This document shows positions 23,516 to 33,654 of a stretch of 37,860 bases of DNA, piece by piece (position 1 is the stretch's first letter; each line of letters begins with the position of its first letter). Made by a program: the position numbers and the translations under genes. The notes under the pieces are model-generated. The model worked only from the letters and a program-made list of their open reading frames with translations, had not been told where the DNA came from and searched no databases. The stretch comes from a virus (taxonomy: Duplodnaviria > Heunggongvirae > Uroviricota > Caudoviricetes): IMG/VR virus record IMGVR_UViG_2541047762_000007. The stretch is one strand, 5' to 3'.

Positions 23516-24057
23516 GTGGCAATCCCCAGAATCTCGCGACGAAGCGCCTGTACTGCGTCGCTTGACAGTCCCCCCTTACGGGCAATTTTCTCGGCGTTGC
23601 TGGCTGCCTGCTGCGCTCTGGCCCGTACTTCAGACTGGAACTTTTTGAGGTTGACGGACGCGCGGGACAGCGTAGCCACATTCTTCGCCACCTTCGACAG
23701 CAGGGCCACGCGTTCTTTAGGATCGACTTCGCCTTCTTCCGCCTCCTGCAACTGGACAATACTCTCGAACAGCTCGGTCTGAATAAGGGCTATCACAGCC
23801 TCCGAACGCGCATCCTGATCGTCTGCTGCGCCTTCGGTCAGCATGCGGGCCGCTTCTGTTGCCGCACGGATAGCACCATAGCGGCGCTCAATCTTCTGTC
23901 CATAGCGATGGATAGCGGATTTGCTGATGACGTACCCCCGCTCACGCAGCAGGGACTCCAGCTCGTTATACCCGCTGAAGCCGGATTCAGTCAGCGCCCG
24001 TTCAAGCCAGCGGCGCACGTCTTCCGGCAGCTTTTCTATTGTGCTGCGTCTGGCCAT
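23512..24057 (-). CDS. Terminase small subunit-like protein (Mu gp27-like)
   Basis: 181 aa, helical, directly upstream of the large terminase. Confidence 0.7.
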   Translation of the reverse strand: MARRSTIEKLPEDVRRWLERALTESGFSGYNELESLLRERGYVISKSAIHRYGQKIERRYGAIRAATEAARMLTEGAADDQDARSEAVIALIQTELFESIVQLQEAEEGEVDPKERVALLSKVAKNVATLSRASVNLKKFQSEVRARAQQAASNAEKIARKGGLSSDAVQALRREILGIAT

Positions 24058-24368
24058 TATTCACTCCAGTACTTTTCCGGGCGGGCAATACCCGGACCAC
24101 ATTCCACGGTGTATTCCACCAGGTCTACGCCGAGGCGGGTCAGGTCAGCAAACCAGTCGCCAGAAGGTTTTTTCTCCAGATCAACCATTTTACGGTCAGC
24201 CAGATAATCCAGTTCGCGGCGCAGTTCCAGCGGTGTGGTGTCCGGGTAGATGGCACGGGACACATCCAGCAGCAGCGTCTCGCTGGCGGTGTAAGGGCGG
24301 GTCTTGTTCAGGGCAACCAGCAGACTCCAGCGCAGGGATTCGCGGCGTACCCGGGTAATATCGACCAT
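24057..24368 (-). CDS. Hypothetical protein (Mu gp26-like position)
   Basis: 103-aa ORF coupled in the operon. Confidence 0.45.
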   Translation of the reverse strand: MVDITRVRRESLRWSLLVALNKTRPYTASETLLLDVSRAIYPDTTPLELRRELDYLADRKMVDLEKKPSGDWFADLTRLGVDLVEYTVECGPGIARPEKYWSE

Positions 24369-24694
24369 TATTGACCTCCGGTATTGCGGTACTGCTGTAC
24401 CACTTCCAGTTTGTTATAAAGCGCGTCCAGTTTGGCCTCAATGACTGTCTGGCCACGGATATAATCCTCTCGACGGACATAATTCAGCGGTAAATCCGCT
24501 TTAAATCGCATAAATTCTTTTTCCAGCTCGCCCCAGTTGGAGGCGGATTGTTGCAGGGCCTGTTCAAGGGAGGCGAATCGTGCCGCCTGGCGTTCTTCTG
24601 TTTTACTGAACAACCATTTGGCGAGCCCTCCCACAAACCCCATGAAGGTGAGCAGAAAACTCACCACCGTCCAGAATTCAACCTGCAGTGTCAT
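24368..24694 (-). CDS. Membrane-anchored protein (Mu gp25-like; possible lysis accessory)
   Basis: 108 aa, N-terminal transmembrane helix then coiled coil; directly downstream of the spanin gene. Confidence 0.5.
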   Translation of the reverse strand: MTLQVEFWTVVSFLLTFMGFVGGLAKWLFSKTEERQAARFASLEQALQQSASNWGELEKEFMRFKADLPLNYVRREDYIRGQTVIEAKLDALYNKLEVVQQYRNTGGQ

Positions 24695-25341
24695 TTCTGT
24701 AATCCTTCCCGTTCATCCAGTAACGCGTTTATCTGGTTCCGCCAGCGACGACATTGTCCTGCGTTGTCGATGATGTTGGCGAGAACGTCACGCTGGGAGA
24801 CACCCGAATCGCGTAACCGGGTGTCAGTGGTTTCAGGTTGCCCGGTCGCTGTGCCAGAGCGGGTGCCAGCGGCGGCAACTGAGTCTGAATGACCGGTGTC
24901 GACGGATGCGTTGTCATATCCGAGTGCGGCGTTGTACTGGCGCACGAAACCGCGAGTAAACACGCACTCAATGGGATGGCTCTTACCTTTTTCATCAATC
25001 CAGCGCTGTGTGACATCGTTAATTTGCCCCTGTAGTTGTTTATTCCGGCTCTCCAGTTGAGCAATCTGCTCAAGATAACCGGCTTCAGCCCGCTGCCCGG
25101 CGGCCACCTGCTCCTGATACCGTCTGGCCCAGGCCCGCAGCGCAGCATTCTCAAGCGTTGCCTGCTCCGTTTTGTACGCGTCAAATGCTGACTGCAACTG
25201 ACTGAGCGCGGTATCACCGTCACGCTTTGCAGAGTCATGACCACTTCTGTATCCCATGGCATACAGGCCGACCAGAAAGGCATTGATAAGAATGGCCAGC
25301 AGAATGCCGCGCCACGGCAGCTTTTTAACCAGATGCCACAC
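24691..25341 (-). CDS. i-spanin (Rz-like)
   Basis: N-terminal transmembrane segment (ILLAILINAFLVGLYAMGY), then coiled-coil periplasmic domain. Start assigned to the GTG at 25341 with GGAGG upstream; the ORF track extends further. Confidence 0.65.
   Translation of the reverse strand: MWHLVKKLPWRGILLAILINAFLVGLYAMGYRSGHDSAKRDGDTALSQLQSAFDAYKTEQATLENAALRAWARRYQEQVAAGQRAEAGYLEQIAQLESRNKQLQGQINDVTQRWIDEKGKSHPIECVFTRGFVRQYNAALGYDNASVDTGHSDSVAAAGTRSGTATGQPETTDTRLRDSGVSQRDVLANIIDNAGQCRRWRNQINALLDEREGLQK
24729..24995 (-). CDS. o-spanin (Rz1-like lipoprotein) embedded in i-spanin gene
   Basis: Alternate-frame ORF wholly inside the i-spanin gene: MKKVRAIPLSACLLAVSCAS has a lipoprotein signal and lipobox Cys, then a proline-rich mature region. 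Confidence 0.65.
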   Translation of the reverse strand: MKKVRAIPLSACLLAVSCASTTPHSDMTTHPSTPVIQTQLPPLAPALAQRPGNLKPLTPGYAIRVSPSVTFSPTSSTTQDNVVAGGTR

Positions 25342-26065
25342 AACTGCTGCCTCCCCATGTGAGATATCGCGGTGCCAGTTCGCGCAGGATGCGCTGCGGA
25401 TAATGGCGGTTCTCCCGCCAGCTGGCCGCATTGCGTCCGGCATTCACCGTGGCGACATGTCCGAACCAGCGGGTGCTGTCCAGACCTTTCTGTGATGCAA
25501 GCCGCCTGTCCCGTTGTACCCAGCCCAGACCACCGTTATAGCCCGACAGTGTCATGGCCATACGCTCGCAGTCACTGGCGGCGCTGACACGCTGCCACAG
25601 CCAGCGGTCATAGCTGACCAGCGCCCGGATAGCCCATGCCGGATTAAACGGCTCACGACTGCTCAGCATCGGTATCAACTGGCTTATCCAGTCGGCAGTG
25701 GCAGGCATGAACTGCGCCAGTCCCTGAGCGCCAGCCGGCGAGATCGCATCAGGTCGCCAGCCGCTTTCCTGATGCAGTTGCGCGGCGAAATCGGCCACCG
25801 GCGCAGACAGTCCCCATTCAAGCCGGGCATTACGGATCACATCATCGCGATACTGCAGCGCAGCCTGCGGAGGTTGTGCTGCGCATGCCTGGCTGAAAAA
25901 GCCGCCACACCAGAGCAACATTGCGACAAAGAATACCCATGCCATATGAACCAGAAAGGTCCCGGCGCGGACTGACAGGCGTTCGGTTCTGATGAAGACC
26001 CGAAAGGCTTCGAAAGCCAGTTTCAGGGACATGCATACAATCCAGGTGATCTGCGGCCAGTTCAT
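25325..26065 (-). CDS. Endolysin, lytic transglycosylase (SLT) type with N-terminal hydrophobic segment
   Basis: SLT catalytic motif (ESGWRPDAISPAGAQGLAQFMPATA) and an N-terminal hydrophobic stretch (MAWVFFVAMLLWCGGFF). Possible alternative start at 25945. Confidence 0.8.
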   Translation of the reverse strand: MNWPQITWIVCMSLKLAFEAFRVFIRTERLSVRAGTFLVHMAWVFFVAMLLWCGGFFSQACAAQPPQAALQYRDDVIRNARLEWGLSAPVADFAAQLHQESGWRPDAISPAGAQGLAQFMPATADWISQLIPMLSSREPFNPAWAIRALVSYDRWLWQRVSAASDCERMAMTLSGYNGGLGWVQRDRRLASQKGLDSTRWFGHVATVNAGRNAASWRENRHYPQRILRELAPRYLTWGGSSCVASG

Positions 26066-26067
26066 GA

Positions 26068-26418
26068 TTAAAGCCCCATCGCAACAGCCAGGCAGACCGC
26101 TGCAACAATCAGTGCACGGCGGATTAACGCAGCAGAAAACACCAGGTGAAGGCCGGTCTGTACCGGGAAACGCCCTTCAGCCATCAGCCTGTCGTCATGT
26201 TTCAGGTACTGACCGGGACGGGCTTTGGGGAAGAGCGAACGGTCAAGCCAGTAACCCAGCACTGCTGCCAGCGTGATGAGTGCCAGCTTGTAGATCACAA
26301 CAGGCAGCTGCTGTGGTGAGACCAGAGCGATGGTGCCCAGCAACAGCACTGAGGTCAGCAGCCAGCCGCTGAGGCGAGGTTTTTTAACAGGGGGAATGAA
26401 TTTTTTCAGGTTTTTCAT
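26068..26418 (-). CDS. Putative holin (three transmembrane segments)
   Basis: 116 aa from the ATG at 26418 (AAGGAGACACAC upstream), three hydrophobic helices, immediately upstream of endolysin. An in-frame upstream start at 26448/26451 is possible. Confidence 0.6.
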   Translation of the reverse strand: MKNLKKFIPPVKKPRLSGWLLTSVLLLGTIALVSPQQLPVVIYKLALITLAAVLGYWLDRSLFPKARPGQYLKHDDRLMAEGRFPVQTGLHLVFSAALIRRALIVAAVCLAVAMGL

Positions 26419-26548: not shown

Positions 26549-27025
26549 ATGACGCAGACACTGAATCCGGTCATCACTGTCACCGTGTCCGGTCCTGTGG
26601 GCAGCGGTAAAAGTTACATATTGGCGCGGATAGAGGAAGTGGTGAAACAGGAATTCGGAAACAGCGTCATTGTCGATGCTGCTGACGTGGAGAATGAGCG
26701 CCGTATGAATGGCGAAGATCTGACGACCTGGCAGAAGCCACGGGGTGGCACAGTGATCAGGCTAGAGGAATACACGGGACAGGGCCTGTTGTCATACGGC
26801 GAGGAGCGTATCTGTCGGACGAATGAGCTGCTGGATGTTATATGCCCCACGGGCCGGCAACCCTGGATACTGCCCGATGCACTGCATGCCACCATTGCGG
26901 CACTGATGACAGTTTACGATCAGGAGCTGCTCATGAAGGAGTTACGTAAACTCACCGGTCAGCCAACAGAATGTTGTTCGTCTCCGAAGTACGGCAAACA
27001 GGAAAACGCCCCGGATAATCCTTAA
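26549..27025 (+). CDS. Small P-loop (Walker A) protein, unknown function
   Basis: 158 aa with GPVGSGKS Walker A and a possible Walker B (VIVDAAD). Strong SD (AGAGGAG); on the opposite strand to the late operon. Confidence 0.6.
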   Translation: MTQTLNPVITVTVSGPVGSGKSYILARIEEVVKQEFGNSVIVDAADVENERRMNGEDLTTWQKPRGGTVIRLEEYTGQGLLSYGEERICRTNELLDVICPTGRQPWILPDALHATIAALMTVYDQELLMKELRKLTGQPTECCSSPKYGKQENAPDNP

Positions 27026-27044
27026 GATACCTCCTGAACAGAAA

Positions 27045-27060
27045 CAGCCCTGAAGGGCTG
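27045..27060. terminator. Hairpin between convergent genes (likely terminator for 27063..27653)
   Basis: CAGCCC-TGAA-GGGCTG stem-loop; on the minus strand it is followed by TTTCTGTT. Confidence 0.5.
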
Positions 27061-27062
27061 CA

Positions 27063-27653
27063 CTAAAAAAAGAAGTGTATTATTGCCCAAACAGCTATAA
27101 CGATGATTCCCAGCCCAAGAGCCGATTCTAACTTATCTTTGGCAGTCATTTTTACTGTTGTAGCGGGCGCAGGTAAGTCTTGCTGCTGTGGATTTTCTGT
27201 TAGTTGTTTACGAGAAGAAACATCGCCCCTGTTAGTTTGCTTCATGTTGATTACAGATGCGTTATGGGCATTATCAGCAGCAATTGACTGAAGTTTTACA
27301 AAAGTTTTTGAATCTGTTTTAGCCAGAAGTAACCTATTTCCCGTAAACATTGCCTTAAAAGTGATAGTTTTTTTCGTCTTGTCCGCCGCACCAAGCAAAC
27401 CTCCAATGACCAACCCTGCACCACCAAAGATTAATCCACCAAGCAAACCTGCGCCTGCCGCCTTACCTATACGGCTTTCCTCTTCACTATCCGCAAGTTC
27501 AATCGATAAAAGCTCTTCTTTCAGATTTAATACAATATTTTCAGGAAAGCCTTGTTTTGGTTTTTTGGCAAACACGATGGTACCGAACCCCATGCTTGCC
27601 CACCCTTTAGGAAAACTTCCTGCGATAACCTGAATCCCTGCCATGTTCATCAC
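27063..27653 (-). CDS. Glycine-zipper membrane protein, unknown function
   Basis: 196 aa, AT-rich codons, central GxxxG-rich hydrophobic region (AAGAGLLGGLIFGGAGLVIGGLLGAA) and C-terminal transmembrane helix. Confidence 0.55.
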   Translation of the reverse strand: MMNMAGIQVIAGSFPKGWASMGFGTIVFAKKPKQGFPENIVLNLKEELLSIELADSEEESRIGKAAGAGLLGGLIFGGAGLVIGGLLGAADKTKKTITFKAMFTGNRLLLAKTDSKTFVKLQSIAADNAHNASVINMKQTNRGDVSSRKQLTENPQQQDLPAPATTVKMTAKDKLESALGLGIIVIAVWAIIHFFF

Positions 27654-27734
27654 CTTTTACATTAAAATTTCAGAACGCAGCATGATGCCGCCTTTGTCTT
27701 TTTTCTGATCCCATGGTAATTCAGCTGTTATTTT

Positions 27735-28721
27735 CTATTTAAGAATAAAACGGTACTTACTGTCAGGAGTGCTTTGCTGATCAAGTAGCAGTGAACGACA
27801 TGGAGCAGTCAAAACCCGAGCATAACTACCATCAGGGCTTATGTTAATGTAACAAACCTTGCCCTTAACACTATAATTTTCGGGGACGGATGCCTTTGCT
27901 GATACAGTAAATTTAAGGGTATGCCAGCCCGTTTTTTGCTTGTAGCTTGAAACCGAATGGAAATCATCTGAGTACTTATTTAACCCTGGAAACATGCTGC
28001 GCAGTGCGGGGATGGAATCTTCTATTATTTTATCGTTGGTTTTAATGTTAAAAACGCTGGTTTCAGTAGAAGCTACTGCTTTGGCATTTCCCCATTTACC
28101 AGCGAACACAATCATTCCCACGAAAAATATTGCTACAAGAACTAACACTCCCCCCAACACTACTACATGAGGCTTCCGGCTTCTGGTTGGTACAGTTGCG
28201 ACTGATTTTGCACCGCTTTCCGATGGAGGTGATAGAGTTTTACTCTCATCACGAATATTCAGCAGATCATCAAAATAACCAAACACAGCCTGCAACTGCT
28301 CTTTGTCTAGGCCTTTAAGATGGGTTGTACCGAAATGCTTCAGACAGTATCTGTCACGGTCAAGACGATACCCAGGGTCAGTAAGCGCCATTATTTTGCT
28401 GACCAGAAGATTACAGTCCTTCATATTCTGGATCTGTTGTGCATATCTCTGAAGGATCTCAACCGCACCATGATAATCAGCCGCAGTCATTTCATTAACT
28501 GTTTTGGTATTAAGTTTCGTGTGGATCGTCATCCATAGCTCGCGCTTACTTTCCCCCAGATCAACCAATTCATCCATCAATCTGTGTAAATCGCGTTTTT
28601 GCAGCAACGAAATTGGTTGCTGGGCCGAAGGAAGTATGTCAGCAGAATAGTTATGAATGGTAACATCACCGCTGACAACGTTACCCACATCCCCGTTAAC
28701 TGTTTGCTTCTCTTTACTCAT
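27735..28721 (-). CDS. Bitopic membrane protein co-transcribed with repressor (candidate superinfection-exclusion/defence protein)
   Basis: 328 aa, start overlaps repressor stop. Single transmembrane helix (HVVVLGGVLVLVAIFFVGMIVFAGKW) splits an ~185-aa N-terminal domain from an ~120-aa C-terminal domain. N-terminal motif GDVGNVVSGDVTI echoes the repressor C-terminus. Confidence 0.6.
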   Translation of the reverse strand: MSKEKQTVNGDVGNVVSGDVTIHNYSADILPSAQQPISLLQKRDLHRLMDELVDLGESKRELWMTIHTKLNTKTVNEMTAADYHGAVEILQRYAQQIQNMKDCNLLVSKIMALTDPGYRLDRDRYCLKHFGTTHLKGLDKEQLQAVFGYFDDLLNIRDESKTLSPPSESGAKSVATVPTRSRKPHVVVLGGVLVLVAIFFVGMIVFAGKWGNAKAVASTETSVFNIKTNDKIIEDSIPALRSMFPGLNKYSDDFHSVSSYKQKTGWHTLKFTVSAKASVPENYSVKGKVCYINISPDGSYARVLTAPCRSLLLDQQSTPDSKYRFILK

Positions 28722-29179
28722 CTTCTCTTGGTATTTTTGTTCATTATTCCACCTGTTCCTATGGTTACGTTACCTTTGATAACATTCCCCAGAACATCTC
28801 CATGAATAACCTGTTCCGCCCGTTCTCTGGAGGAGCCAGTAGTCAAGGCCGACAAAACTGAACCTTTGACCTGTAATGGTGCCTGCCGGTAGTGCTGCAG
28901 TAACTCCATTTCATCACGTGATAAAGTTATACCTGATGACTCCCCGGTAAGAATGAACTGTACATTGGCCCCAATTCTTGCAAAGGCTGCAAGTAACTCA
29001 CCTCCGGGAACAGCAACCCCTCGTTCATATTTCCCCCACATTTCTCTTGAAACGCCACAAAGGGCTGCTACTTCAGCCTGCTTGAGTGATAACCGCGAAC
29101 GCTCAGCTTTGAACCGCGACGCGCAAAGAGAATCAAAATTCACATAAACCTCATTGACAATGAGAACAATAGTTCTCAT
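28718..29179 (-). CDS. XRE/Cro-C1-type HTH repressor (immunity repressor candidate)
   Basis: HTH segment LSLKQAEVAALCGVSREMWGKYERG; divergent from the early operon. True start may be the GTG at 29143, since operator-like palindromes cover 29150..29179. Confidence 0.75.
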   Translation of the reverse strand: MRTIVLIVNEVYVNFDSLCASRFKAERSRLSLKQAEVAALCGVSREMWGKYERGVAVPGGELLAAFARIGANVQFILTGESSGITLSRDEMELLQHYRQAPLQVKGSVLSALTTGSSRERAEQVIHGDVLGNVIKGNVTIGTGGIMNKNTKRR

Positions 29180-29182
29180 AAT
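29150..29182. promoter_or_regulatory. Operator-like palindromes overlapping early promoter
   Basis: Perfect palindromes CTCATTG-A-CAATGAG (29150..29164) and ATGAGAAC-AATA-GTTCTCAT (29160..29179). Consensus -35 TTGACA at 29154..29159 and CATAAT at 29177..29182 with 17-bp spacing, facing the Ner/Cro-like gene. Confidence 0.6.
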
Positions 29183-29229
29183 CTATCACATATAAAACAA
29201 ACATCATTGCATCAACAAAGGAGACAACA

Positions 29230-30707: not shown

Positions 30708-32477
30708 ATGAATGCTGCCCTGACTGAACGACTGGTTTATGTCGCCCGCGCGGCACGTGACGCGGGGCATGGTAAACGCGGTGCAATATACGACGCTGCC
30801 TGTGCTGAACTTGGCATGTCCCGCGCCACTCTGCTGCGCAGGCTGAAGGAGGTCTCTGTGACTGATAAACGCAAAAAACGCGCCGATGCCGGGCGCAGCG
30901 CCCTGACCCGCGACGAAGCCGCGCTGATATCTGCCACACTGCGTGAGGCCACCCGCAAGAACGGTAAGCGTCTCTATTCCATCGCGGATGCAGTGGAAAC
31001 CCTGCGGGCTAACGGCTTTATCTCCGCAGGCAGAACAGATGAAACCACCGGTGAGTTTTTCCCGTTGTCCGAAGATGCCATCAGCCGAGCCCTGCGTAAC
31101 TATGGCCTGCACCCGGAACAACTGGATGCCCCTGCACCACATACTGAAGTGGCCAGTCTGCATCCCAATCATGTCTGGCAGATTGATGCCTCGCTCTGCA
31201 CGCTTTACTACCTGAGTAATGGACACAAAGGACTGCAGGTGATGGACAGCGCGAAGTTCTACAAGAACAAGCCCGCTAACCTTGCCCGTATCGCCAGTGA
31301 CCGCGTGTGGAGTTACGAGATTACCGACCATGCCAGCGGCTGGATTTACGTTGAGTATGTGACGGGTGCGGAATCCGGTGAGAACCTGTGTTCTGTGCTT
31401 ATCAACGCCATGCAGGAGCGTGGCGGCGCAGACGTGCTGCACGGCGTGCCAAAAATACTCTATCTCGACCCCGGCTCGGCAAACACCGCGGGTATGACGA
31501 AAAACATGTGCCGCTCACTGGGCATTGACCTGATAGCGCACAAGCCGCATAACGCCCGCGCCACCGGACAGGTGGAAAAGGCGCGTGACATTATCGAACG
31601 CAAGCTGGAGCCGGGTCTGAAGTTCCGGCCGGTTCACAGTCTGGAAGAACTCAACGCGCTGGCCGCGAAATGGCGCAGCCACTTTAACGCCACGGCTGTT
31701 CACAGCCGCCACGGTAAAACCCGCACGGATATCTGGCTGAAGATTACTACTGAGCAGCTGAAAAAAGCGCCTTCCGTTGAGGTATGTCGTGAACTGGCTG
31801 TGGCGGCACCAGAACTCCGCAAAGTCACGCCAAAACTTCGTGTCTCGTTCCGGGGCACTGAATTTGACGTATCAACGGTACCGGGCGTACTGGTCGGTGA
31901 AAAACTGATGATTACCCGTAACCCGTGGCGCAGCGATGTGGCACAGGTGGTTCTGACCGGTGAGGACGGCCACGAGACGTTCTTCCTGGTCGAAGAGGTC
32001 AGAAAGAACGAGTTTGGCTTTGCTGAAGGCGCGGCGGTATTTGGCGAAAGTTACAAAGCCCTGCCGGAAACACCGGCGCAGACGGCGGCAAAAGAAACTG
32101 AAGCGCTGGTCACCGGTACAGACAACGCCACAGATGCAGCTGCCGCACGCAAGGCGAAGGCGCTGCCGTTCGGCGGGCGGCTTGACCCGTATAAACATAT
32201 TGATGACGCCACACTTCCGGCCTATATGCCGAAGCGCGGTCAGGCCTCTGACGTACGCGGGCCGCGCACTGAACAACGTCCCATGACTCATGTGGAGGCC
32301 GCGAAAGCCCTGCGCGATAAGTTCAGCGCCGACGGCCTTACCTGGACGCCGGAACATTACCGCCAGTTAACGGCACAGTACCCGGACGGCGTACCGGAAG
32401 CCGCACTGGATGAAGTCATGGCCACGCTGACCACGCCGGCACGCAGCAGTGTTATCAGCATTGTTAACGGCAACTGA
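30708..32477 (+). CDS. DDE transposase (Mu A-like)
   Basis: 589 aa with N-terminal HTH-like region and an integrase-type catalytic core (HVWQIDAS, LYLDPGSANTA, ATGQVEKA); followed by a MuB-like ATPase. Confidence 0.8.
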   Translation: MNAALTERLVYVARAARDAGHGKRGAIYDAACAELGMSRATLLRRLKEVSVTDKRKKRADAGRSALTRDEAALISATLREATRKNGKRLYSIADAVETLRANGFISAGRTDETTGEFFPLSEDAISRALRNYGLHPEQLDAPAPHTEVASLHPNHVWQIDASLCTLYYLSNGHKGLQVMDSAKFYKNKPANLARIASDRVWSYEITDHASGWIYVEYVTGAESGENLCSVLINAMQERGGADVLHGVPKILYLDPGSANTAGMTKNMCRSLGIDLIAHKPHNARATGQVEKARDIIERKLEPGLKFRPVHSLEELNALAAKWRSHFNATAVHSRHGKTRTDIWLKITTEQLKKAPSVEVCRELAVAAPELRKVTPKLRVSFRGTEFDVSTVPGVLVGEKLMITRNPWRSDVAQVVLTGEDGHETFFLVEEVRKNEFGFAEGAAVFGESYKALPETPAQTAAKETEALVTGTDNATDAAAARKAKALPFGGRLDPYKHIDDATLPAYMPKRGQASDVRGPRTEQRPMTHVEAAKALRDKFSADGLTWTPEHYRQLTAQYPDGVPEAALDEVMATLTTPARSSVISIVNGN

Positions 32478-32487
32478 GGAGGAAAAC

Positions 32488-33654
32488 ATGCTGGTACTGA
32501 AGCAGCAACTGAAAGAGGCCCGTATCTCACAGGCGGTGGTGGCGAGAGCTGTCGATGTTTCTGAGGCCACGCTGGCCCAGATTGTGAATCATAACGCGTG
32601 GCCCCGCACCCGCCCCGGAGAAGTGCGCCGGCGTCTTGCGTCCTGGCTGGAAAGTCAGGGGATTGATACAACGAAGAGTTTTGATGCTGTACAGGTCGCG
32701 GCCACGCCCCGTACAGCGGGTACCACAGACAAAACGAGCCTCAGTGAGGAAGAGAATATGTTACTCAAAAAACAGGTGTTATTTCCAGCAACCAAAAAAG
32801 CGTTTGGTCTTTTCCGTGACCCGTTCGCCGATGAAGCCATGCAGGGTTCTGATGATGTGTTCACCACCCCGGACATCCGCTATGTGCGTGAGGCGCTGTA
32901 CCAGACAGCCCGTCATGGTGGATTTATGGCCGTCATCGGTGAGTCCGGTGCGGGCAAATCCACGCTGCGCCGCGACCTGACTGAACGTATCAACCGCGAG
33001 AATGCGCCGGTAATTGTTATCGAGCCATACGTCATCGCCATGGAAGACAACGATGTGAAAGGAAAAACCCTGAAGGCTGCAGCGATTGCCGAAGCCATTA
33101 TCAGTACCATCGCACCACTGGAAAGCATCAGACGCAGTCAGGACGCCCGCTTTCGCCAGTTGCATCGCGTCCTGAAAGACAGCAGCCAGGCGGGGTTCAG
33201 CCACGTTCTGGTGATTGAGGAGGCCCACAGTCTGCCCGTTCCGACACTGAAACACCTCAAACGCTTTTTTGAGCTGGAGTCCGGTTTCAAAAAGCTGCTG
33301 TCCATTGTGCTGATTGGCCAGCCGGAACTGGCGACAAAACTGTCTGAACGCAATATGGAAGTCCGTGAAGTCGTTCAGCGCTGTGAGGTGGTCGAACTTC
33401 TGCCTCTGGACAATAACCTTGAAGAATTTCTGACGTTCAAACTGCAACGGGCCGGTAAACAACTGACGGACATTATGGACGCCAGCGCAGTGGATGCCAT
33501 ACGTGCCCGCCTGAGCAATCCGGGAAGTCATCGTAAAAATATGGTCAGCCTGCTGTATCCGCTGGCCGTCAGTAACCTGGTAATAGCCGCCATGAATCTG
33601 GCCGCTGAAATCGGGGTTCCACAGGTCAACGCTGACGTTGTCAAAGGGGTTTAA
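32488..33654 (+). CDS. Transposition ATPase (Mu B-like AAA+)
   Basis: Walker A GESGAGKST, Walker B-like VLVIEEAH, N-terminal HTH-like region. Start taken at ATG 32488 after GAGGAGG. Confidence 0.8.
   Translation: MLVLKQQLKEARISQAVVARAVDVSEATLAQIVNHNAWPRTRPGEVRRRLASWLESQGIDTTKSFDAVQVAATPRTAGTTDKTSLSEEENMLLKKQVLFPATKKAFGLFRDPFADEAMQGSDDVFTTPDIRYVREALYQTARHGGFMAVIGESGAGKSTLRRDLTERINRENAPVIVIEPYVIAMEDNDVKGKTLKAAAIAEAIISTIAPLESIRRSQDARFRQLHRVLKDSSQAGFSHVLVIEEAHSLPVPTLKHLKRFFELESGFKKLLSIVLIGQPELATKLSERNMEVREVVQRCEVVELLPLDNNLEEFLTFKLQRAGKQLTDIMDASAVDAIRARLSNPGSHRKNMVSLLYPLAVSNLVIAAMNLAAEIGVPQVNADVVKGV

Follow-up and report, generated by a model that had tools for sequence, protein, structure and literature searches.

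A predicted two-helix membrane hairpin precedes a conserved candidate signal peptidase I site in the SLT endolysin of a BcepMu-like prophage

The BcepMu-type SLT endolysin and the lysis cassette to which it belongs have been described since 2004. In phage BcepMu the cassette comprises the gp21 holin, the gp22 SLT endolysin, the gp23/gp24 pair of Rz/Rz1 spanins, gp25 and gp26, and the endolysin carries one short N-terminal signal (MRVLIAFVVALLGAAAPVAA|QVP). The same order was found here in the virus record IMGVR_UViG_2541047762_000007 (the whole analysed stretch of 37,860 nucleotides is referred to as the window), a BcepMu-like transposable prophage of E. coli whose endolysin gene at 25325-26065 on the minus strand starts with ATG and encodes 246 amino acids (aa), with a predicted two-helix hairpin instead of the short signal. 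The enzyme and the cassette are ordinary and the enzyme type is known; the N-terminus is the addition and is new in detail. As far as the searchable literature shows, the combination of a fused hairpin and a conserved signal peptidase site appears to be undescribed. Variation at the N-terminus of BcepMu-type lysins as such has been noted, and a cleavable signal was predicted by SignalP in the lysin of phage KS10 (PMC2628397).

Closely related cassettes are present in the Pseudomonas B3-like phages (JBD18/JD18, JBD25, Fc02 and others), where the order is holin, 52-aa protein, SLT endolysin, spanins and a protein in the slot of gp25. Likeness to the window extends to an endolysin of 60% identity, the same holin family, a 52-aa protein homologous to the hairpin and, in JD18, a slot protein of phrog_462. 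In contrast to the window, the hairpin protein of the B3-like phages is the product of a separate gene and the endolysin signal (MKRLLTLGLLGLLSAC|QP) has the lipobox LLSAC.

Phage Mu and the prophage of the window are alike in being transposable and in having an exported endolysin, spanins, a following protein of ~100 aa with a single transmembrane domain (TMD), and homologous gp26 and gp27. They differ in the enzyme (PF00959 lysozyme in Mu, SLT in the window), in the nature of the export signal and in the family of the gp25-slot protein. Mu gp22 has one Gly/Ala-rich signal-anchor-release (SAR) helix and no A-x-A site. Mu has no holin, whereas the cassette of the window opens with a PF13272 holin, and Mu gp25 is a releasin that is needed to free the SAR endolysin gp22 (PMC9239132). 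Two further systems are comparable in single respects. Lys44 of the Oenococcus phage fOg44 is exported independently of the holin, its signal is removed by signal peptidase, and its activity is kept in check until the membrane potential is dissipated by the holin (PMC6116005); however, this is a different enzyme in a Gram-positive host, and in the window the 'signal' would be the second helix of a hairpin and its cleavage is a prediction. The endolysin of Xanthomonas phage Xp10, again a different enzyme and from a phage said to have no holin, possesses two N-terminal TMDs and is likened here by its description (PMC8541568).

The SLT enzyme and its N-terminal hairpin

The endolysin precursor of 27.7 kDa was assigned by profile searches, in which residues 97-193 (25487..25777, minus strand) matched the Pfam SLT model PF01464 with E=1.8e-14 and 53.8 bits (cut-off 21.3) and the protein matched PHROG 669 'endolysin' with E=8.8e-69. 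The motif LHQE100SGW was aligned to the QESAW motif of E. coli Slt70 (1sly/1qsa; phmmer to 1sly with E=1.7e-5), whose glutamate, the catalytic residue of Slt70, corresponds to Glu100, encoded at 25766-25768. Both the GLAQFMP and the SGYNGG motif are present downstream of QE100SGW, and E100, S101 and Y176-N177-G178-G179 are invariant or nearly so in 46-48 homologues; C166 and C242 are invariant as well and probably have a structural role. Judged by its sequence, the endolysin is an SLT lytic transglycosylase of the Slt70 type with the GH23 fold, and this activity is predicted for it. The initial annotation had named it an SLT transglycosylase and not a Mu-type enzyme, which was correct, because Mu gp22 belongs to the different family phrog_7/PF00959 lysozyme. 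Its closest characterised relatives are BcepMu gp22 (over endolysin residues 72-238) and the SLT endolysins of the Pseudomonas B3-like phages, each with ~60% identity, and 1956 homologues were found at E<=1e-10. Orthology to BcepMu gp22 and the position between a PF13272 holin and Rz/Rz1 spanins identify it as a BcepMu gp22-type endolysin.

The N-terminal hydrophobic segment of the initial annotation proved to be a hydrophobic membrane-targeting region made up of two segments, not one. The first helix, residues 5-25 (25991..26053, minus strand), begins with a conserved WPQI and is only weakly hydrophobic in the E. coli variant, with the charged residues K15, E19 and R22. The second, residues 35-57 (25895..25963, minus strand), is strongly hydrophobic, ends with a conserved LLWCGGFF and is predicted to be oriented N-in/C-out. 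Between them lies the basic loop R26-A34 (RTERLSVRA). In the AlphaFold model the helices cover residues 3-25 and 30-53, G54-G55 form a break, and the predicted local confidence (pLDDT) is 71-83; from this model, with a mean pLDDT of 65 and values below 60 in places of the catalytic domain, the secondary structure of the hairpin alone was used. By the positive-inside rule, a cytoplasmic loop and a periplasmic SLT domain are expected both with and without insertion of helix 1.

In comparison with BcepMu gp22 (203 aa) and the JD18 endolysin (209 aa), the protein of the window has ~48 extra N-terminal residues. This longer form of 240-246 aa is the norm in Enterobacterales, where it was found in E. 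coli, Salmonella, Klebsiella, Pantoea, Serratia, Pectobacterium, Dickeya, Morganella and Arsenophonus, and the fused hairpin is conserved at both its M-x-W-P-Q-I start and its W-L-L-W-C-G-G-F-F end. The wide distribution with conserved start and end argues that the hairpin is a real and selected architecture. An internal start at M41 was rejected for the main product, as most homologues have no Met there, while conservation and coupling to the holin stop favour the MxWPQI start.

The likely source of the hairpin is found in the Pseudomonas B3-like phages. The separate gene between holin and endolysin encodes a 52-aa membrane protein (MGAPQIIWIV...VWWGGFFG*) that is conserved in 48 Pseudomonas phage records, some of which label it 'holin'. 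It aligned with the hairpin of the window collinearly and from end to end (BLASTP, E=3e-4), and a profile of 74 unique fused hairpins matched the 52-aa open reading frame (ORF) of JD18/JBD25 over the full model length with E=2.8e-9, the next match among 793 reading frames having E=0.027. That next match, to Mu gp19, was fragmentary and was judged compositional. A phmmer search of the whole library with the 66-residue hairpin gave 10 matches, all of them fragments or fused forms, and was uninformative on free-standing homologues. Of the short signal that the endolysin has in those phages, the enterobacterial form lacks the n- and h-regions, and the c-region directly continues the small protein in the same reading frame. 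These sequences are explained most economically by a deletion that fused the small membrane protein to the c-region of the signal peptide.

The junction and the mode of export

Towards the SLT domain, the residues R26/R29/R33, the helix 35-57 and the dipeptide SQ are followed by the candidate signal peptidase I site A60-C61-A62 (25880..25888, minus strand), with cleavage predicted at A62|A63. This is the layout of a Sec signal peptide, with positive charges on the N-side, a hydrophobic segment and then small residues at -3/-1 within ~5 residues. The predicted products are a mature enzyme of 184 aa and 20.5 kDa that starts with AQPPQ and a 7.2-kDa hairpin, which equals the counterpart of the free-standing Pseudomonas protein plus five residues. 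Among 61 unique junctions the consensus reads ...G-G-F-F-S-Q-A-x-A|A-[Q/E]-P-P. Alanine occupies position -3 in 58, position -1 in 59 and position +1 in all 61 of them, and position -2 is the one hypervariable position of the junction (N/R/H/S/A/D/Q/C, 2.64 bits). The junction pattern is that of the -3/-1 rule of signal peptidase I.

A SAR domain, which the initial annotation had considered for this region while naming a cleavable Sec signal as evidence to the contrary, is weakened by that very argument, because the hydrophobic region ends in an A-x-A|A signal peptidase I motif. The fractions of Gly, Ala, Ser and Thr in the two helices, 0.19 and 0.26, are low in comparison with 0.55-0.65 in Mu gp22, R21 and P1 Lyz. 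Whereas a SAR domain is a single charge-free TMD rich in these residues, two helices were found here, the first with three charges. Spontaneous SAR release of the Mu endolysin is already blocked by two Lys residues in its cytoplasmic tail (PMC9239132). Spontaneous exit of the hairpin is unlikely, since a loop with 3-4 Arg and a second helix would need to cross the membrane. The endolysin is probably not a Mu-style SAR enzyme.

Orthologues with the same mature domain carry different export devices at exactly the same junction. Classical signal peptides are found there in a Brenneria protein (P0113, MARR...LLFLLLILLLTGAFGSNA|AQPP) and in BcepMu gp22, and lipoboxes in JD18/JBD25 (LLSAC) and in protein P0099 (LLSGC). 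Salmonella proteins (P0088, L084) have a second two-helix module that shows no evident similarity to the first and ends in ...TKSHA|AEPP. In nine IMG/VR loci (L073-L081) an internal deletion has brought the beginning of helix 1 next to the end of helix 2; the resulting collapsed hairpin, MNWRQIIGIVLLWCGGMVSPALA|DEPP, reads as a canonical signal peptide, with a gp25-like gene still downstream. One orthologous endolysin family thus has at least five export devices at the same residue, namely a signal peptide, a lipoprotein signal, two unrelated hairpins and a collapsed hairpin, and this set is a natural series for how the mode of export or tethering shapes the timing of lysis.

Some of these variants deserve mention in their own right. 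The second hairpin, MTMIFYIISCVLVAAAIIASLYGAIRKACAEGAFFLVLIFLFFASMFGALSTKSHA|AEPP, is found on the same mature SLT domain in a Salmonella enterica locus (L009, 3501-4223) and in L084. The endolysins of JD18 (L005, 2408-3037) and JBD25 (L006, 3398-4027) possess a good lipobox and Gln at +2, which suggests that they are outer-membrane lipoproteins like MltA-D of the host. For the endolysin of the window a lipoprotein reading was discarded, as neither LLWC nor SQAC fits a lipobox. Disulfide caging of the P1 Lyz type was likewise considered unlikely: many homologues have S, W or A in place of C53 of helix 2, and the BcepMu signal has no Cys.

Several points weigh against cleavage followed by free release. 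The hydrophobic region has 23 residues here, with the GG break 8-9 residues before the site; the typical length is ~7-15 and that of the nine deletion loci 13-14, so that helix 2 is longer than typical cleaved h-regions and falls among the lengths of uncleaved signal anchors. Conservation of the segment WLLWCGGFFSQA goes far beyond what is usual for signal peptides, which implies some further role. In addition, a constitutively released periplasmic transglycosylase would need some restraint until the holin fires. Finally, closely related Pseudomonas SLT endolysins were classed as SAR enzymes by the Young laboratory (PMC9239132). With these points counted in, we lean modestly towards cleavage of the hairpin by signal peptidase.

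Models of restraint and release

The model that we prefer, with a confidence only slightly above even, is that of a Sec-exported SLT pro-endolysin with a fused hairpin that is cut by signal peptidase I, lysis being timed by the holin. The enzyme would reach the periplasm by the Sec pathway independently of the holin, i.e. as an exported endolysin. Its N-terminus would form an N-out/C-out two-helix membrane hairpin with a basic cytoplasmic loop, derived from a small membrane protein that became fused in frame to the c-region of the endolysin's original signal peptide, and helix 2 would act as an internal signal sequence. Signal peptidase I would cut most likely after A60-C61-A62, leaving the hairpin in the membrane and a soluble 20.5-kDa SLT enzyme in the periplasm. 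The PF13272 holin would then time lysis by collapsing the membrane potential, the restraint until this event resembling the control of secreted endolysins by the proton-motive force, e.g. of Lys44 (PMC6116005), and the Rz/Rz1-type spanin pair would complete the outer-membrane step. Enzyme family, catalytic residue, cassette composition, hairpin homology and A-x-A conservation enter this model as direct results; topology, cleavage and the way in which activity is held back until the holin fires are steps that we infer.

Possible, but in our estimate rather doubtful, is an uncleaved and membrane-tethered endolysin in line with the initial annotation, in which the hairpin or helix 2 would keep the SLT domain inactive at the inner membrane until it is released by holin depolarisation and/or by a releasin analogue in the gp25 slot. 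The signal-anchor length of helix 2 and the weak hydrophobicity of helix 1 in the E. coli variant fit this possibility, as does the naming of the Pseudomonas relatives as SAR endolysins in PMC9239132. It is at odds with the conserved A-x-A|A site with its hypervariable -2 position, with helices whose G/A/S/T fractions are 0.19-0.26 instead of the 0.55-0.65 of SAR domains, and with a basic cytoplasmic loop and a second helix that make spontaneous exit unlikely. Further evidence on both sides comes from the putative releasin itself.

The protein in question, of 108 aa, is encoded at 24368..24694 on the minus strand, matches phrog_462 with E=1.6e-36 and shares 53% identity with BcepMu gp25. Its TMD (residues 7-25) precedes the basic residues K26/K31/R35, and AlphaFold models the protein as one long helix (7-104, pLDDT 83), the part after the TMD being predicted to be cytoplasmic. 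The initial annotation had placed a small TM protein after the endolysin, where Mu was said to encode a factor for endolysin release. This is right, the factor being the gp25 releasin (PMC9239132), and so is the assignment of a single-TMD protein to the slot of Mu gp25, since the gp26 homologue comes immediately downstream. The protein does not directly follow the endolysin, however; it is the third gene after it, with an i-spanin and an o-spanin gene in between, neither of which had been mentioned.

Size, position and single-TMD architecture, which in Mu gp25 is N-out/C-in (PMC9239132), are shared with the Mu protein and speak for the tethered form; the transposable phage background is shared as well. 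Homology was not detected. BLASTP of the gp25-slot protein against Mu gp25 gave no alignment, PF10805 at E<=10 did not match the gp25-slot protein, BcepMu gp25, the KP12 protein or any of 26 family members, an NCBIfam search of the gp25-slot protein for a link to DUF2730 was negative, and a profile comparison by hhalign (26 sequences of the family against 18 of DUF2730) returned a probability of 2%. Moreover, the PHROG differs (462 for the gp25-slot protein, 736 for Mu gp25). Membership in DUF2730 was rejected on the basis of the negative BLASTP, Pfam, NCBIfam and hhalign results; that two homologues are named DUF2730 by UniRef is a lead only. The failure to detect DUF2730 homology counts against the tethered form, as does the finding that gp25-like proteins also stand beside endolysins with short classical signal peptides, where there is nothing to release. 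This co-occurrence argues against a strict releasin requirement and has a parallel in DUF2730 proteins, which are also found with cytoplasmic endolysins (PMC9239132). The suggestion of the initial annotation that this protein is a release factor therefore keeps slot and architecture in its favour, while the family link is missing and ordinary signal peptides occur beside it. A releasin role of 24368-24694 is unproven and would be by analogy only.

A possible interchangeability in the slot is nevertheless indicated by JD18 and JBD25, whose endolysins are 98% identical and whose slot is filled by a phrog_462 protein in JD18 and by a PF10805/DUF2730 protein in JBD25. This exchange, together with a head-less Brenneria element that retains gp25-like and gp26-like genes beside its lysis genes, favours the tethered form and suggests that phrog_462 and DUF2730 proteins are functionally equivalent in this position. 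The comparison of L005 3833-4520 (JD18) with L006 4852-5471 (JBD25) showed that the gp25-slot and the gp26-slot proteins are both unrelated and that the exchange starts right after the spanins. Because the gp26-slot neighbour is exchanged as well, the swap may be a mosaic block and not a one-gene replacement. The question raised is whether the gp25 slot of transposable phages is filled by unrelated yet functionally equivalent 'releasin' proteins, for which the present cassette offers an E. coli K-12-compatible system.

The Brenneria element (L010; Brenneria goodwinii GCA_042863245.1, JAVCYT010000087.1, 1-20648) is BcepMu-like and was seen in two assemblies. Genes for transposase, GemA, Mor, repressor, holin, SLT endolysin, spanin, gp25-like and gp26-like proteins are present, and directly after the gp26-like gene follow tail genes (Gp37, sheath, tube, tape measure, baseplate). 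The element lacks genes for terminase, portal and capsid and may be either a prophage in decay or a transposable phage derivative of the tailocin type.

The database labels in this region need care, as phrog_462 may be wrongly called 'lipoprotein' and the Pseudomonas enzymes wrongly called 'SAR'. The gp25-slot protein contains zero Cys, and for this reason the 'lipoprotein' label given by PHROG and GenBank to phrog_462 does not apply to 24368-24694. The label may stem from Pseudomonas members with LGAC near the N-terminus.

A more far-reaching idea, which we regard as speculative and unlikely to hold in full, is that of a natural 'pro-endolysin': the endolysin would be made as one chain with a small membrane protein that belongs to the lysis cassette and may be a holin partner or an antiholin, the host signal peptidase would split the two, and phrog_462 would in addition be a second releasin-like family, interchangeable with DUF2730 though unrelated in sequence. 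If true, such a pro-endolysin would tie the amount and the delivery of a lysis regulator to those of the enzyme.

Improbable in our view is a hairpin that serves as a holin- or antiholin-like module in cis, by which the endolysin would export itself or regulate the holin, in the way put forward for the Xp10 endolysin, any cleavage only separating two functional products. Homology to an independent conserved lysis-cassette protein of 48 Pseudomonas phages, in part labelled 'holin', a conservation of WPQI and WCGGFF beyond the needs of export, and the precedent of two N-terminal TMDs on the Xanthomonas phage Xp10 endolysin (PMC8541568) would be consistent with such a module. However, a dedicated holin is already present, and in BcepMu and several enterobacterial relatives the hairpin is absent or mostly deleted while holin, endolysin and spanins are retained, from which it follows that the hairpin is dispensable for the cassette.

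That the SLT protein is a virion-associated or host-type transglycosylase and another gene encodes the endolysin is very improbable, for although tail and internal virion proteins can contain SLT domains as well (with weaker PHROG matches), the gene lies between holin and spanins with coupled start and stop codons, its best PHROG is the endolysin family (E=8.8e-69), it is orthologous to the annotated BcepMu endolysin, and the cassette region examined showed no second muralytic domain.

The lysis cassette and neighbouring genes

The window was recognised as a transposable prophage by a transposase (30708-32477), a transposition ATPase (32449-33654), a small terminase subunit like Mu gp27 (TerS) and a large terminase subunit (TerL). 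On the minus strand the genes are arranged in the order holin, SLT endolysin, i-spanin, embedded o-spanin, gp25-slot protein, gp26 homologue, TerS and TerL, collinear with BcepMu gp21-gp28 (NC_005882) gene for gene, and pairwise similarity was detected for each member. In its DNA, the lysis region shares 98.8% identity with Escherichia phage PhiKM, a member of the genus Bcepmuvirus, and ~89% with Klebsiella phage KP12. The cassette was found in 638 of 5426 complete E. coli genomes (12%, about one in eight), in 476 with at least 99% identity. The initial annotation had regarded the lysis module as swapped relative to Mu with a similar logic retained. Since the cassette corresponds to that of BcepMu gene for gene, it is, by sequence comparison, the standard BcepMu/Bcepmuvirus module and not a new swap, and the supposed common logic does not hold either, given the holin that Mu lacks.

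The holin (116 aa; 26068..26418, minus strand) belongs to PF13272 Holin_2-3 (Pfam E=1.5e-41; phrog_1528 E=7.5e-55) and shares 52% identity with BcepMu gp21. Its likely start is the ATG at 26418 with AAGGAG upstream, and its stop lies 2 nt before the endolysin ATG. The endolysin gene is followed by that of the i-spanin (Rz-like, 216 aa, N-terminal TMD; 24691..25341, minus strand), which matches phrog_1403 with E=7.2e-92, is similar to BcepMu gp23 and overlaps the endolysin 3' end by 17 nt. For this gene, GTG 25341 is probably the start rather than the upstream ATGs of a long ORF of 250 aa, in which the phrog_1403 match begins at residue 36; the PhiKM and KP12 annotations were used for this assignment. 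Out of frame inside the i-spanin gene lies the gene of the o-spanin (Rz1-like, 88 aa; 24729..24995, minus strand), which is similar to BcepMu gp24 with E=1e-5. The o-spanin reads MKKVRAIPLSACLLAVSC..., has the lipobox LAVSC with Cys18 and contains 16% Pro in its mature part, so that 24691-25341 and 24729-24995 form a two-component embedded Rz/Rz1 spanin pair. The gp26 homologue (103 aa; 24057..24368, minus strand) matches phrog_436 with E=1.4e-41; Mu gp26 falls into the same PHROG (E=7.3e-43), and this gene anchors the synteny of the cassette with Mu.

Between the lysis cassette and the repressor region, the stretch 27000-29200 has a low GC content of 42-46% compared with 55-59% around it. It contains two minus-strand genes for proteins with TMDs, 27063-27653 (phrog_12025) and 27735-28721 (phrog_10002, a weak match to a moron membrane protein), and is probably accessory cargo. 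Just upstream of the holin and on the opposite strand, an ORF of 158 aa (26549-27025, plus strand) encodes a P-loop-like GPVGSGKS motif; it matches AAA_30 weakly (E=0.003) and phrog_3787, a family without assigned function, with E=1e-107. KP12 and PhiKM have different genes at this spot.

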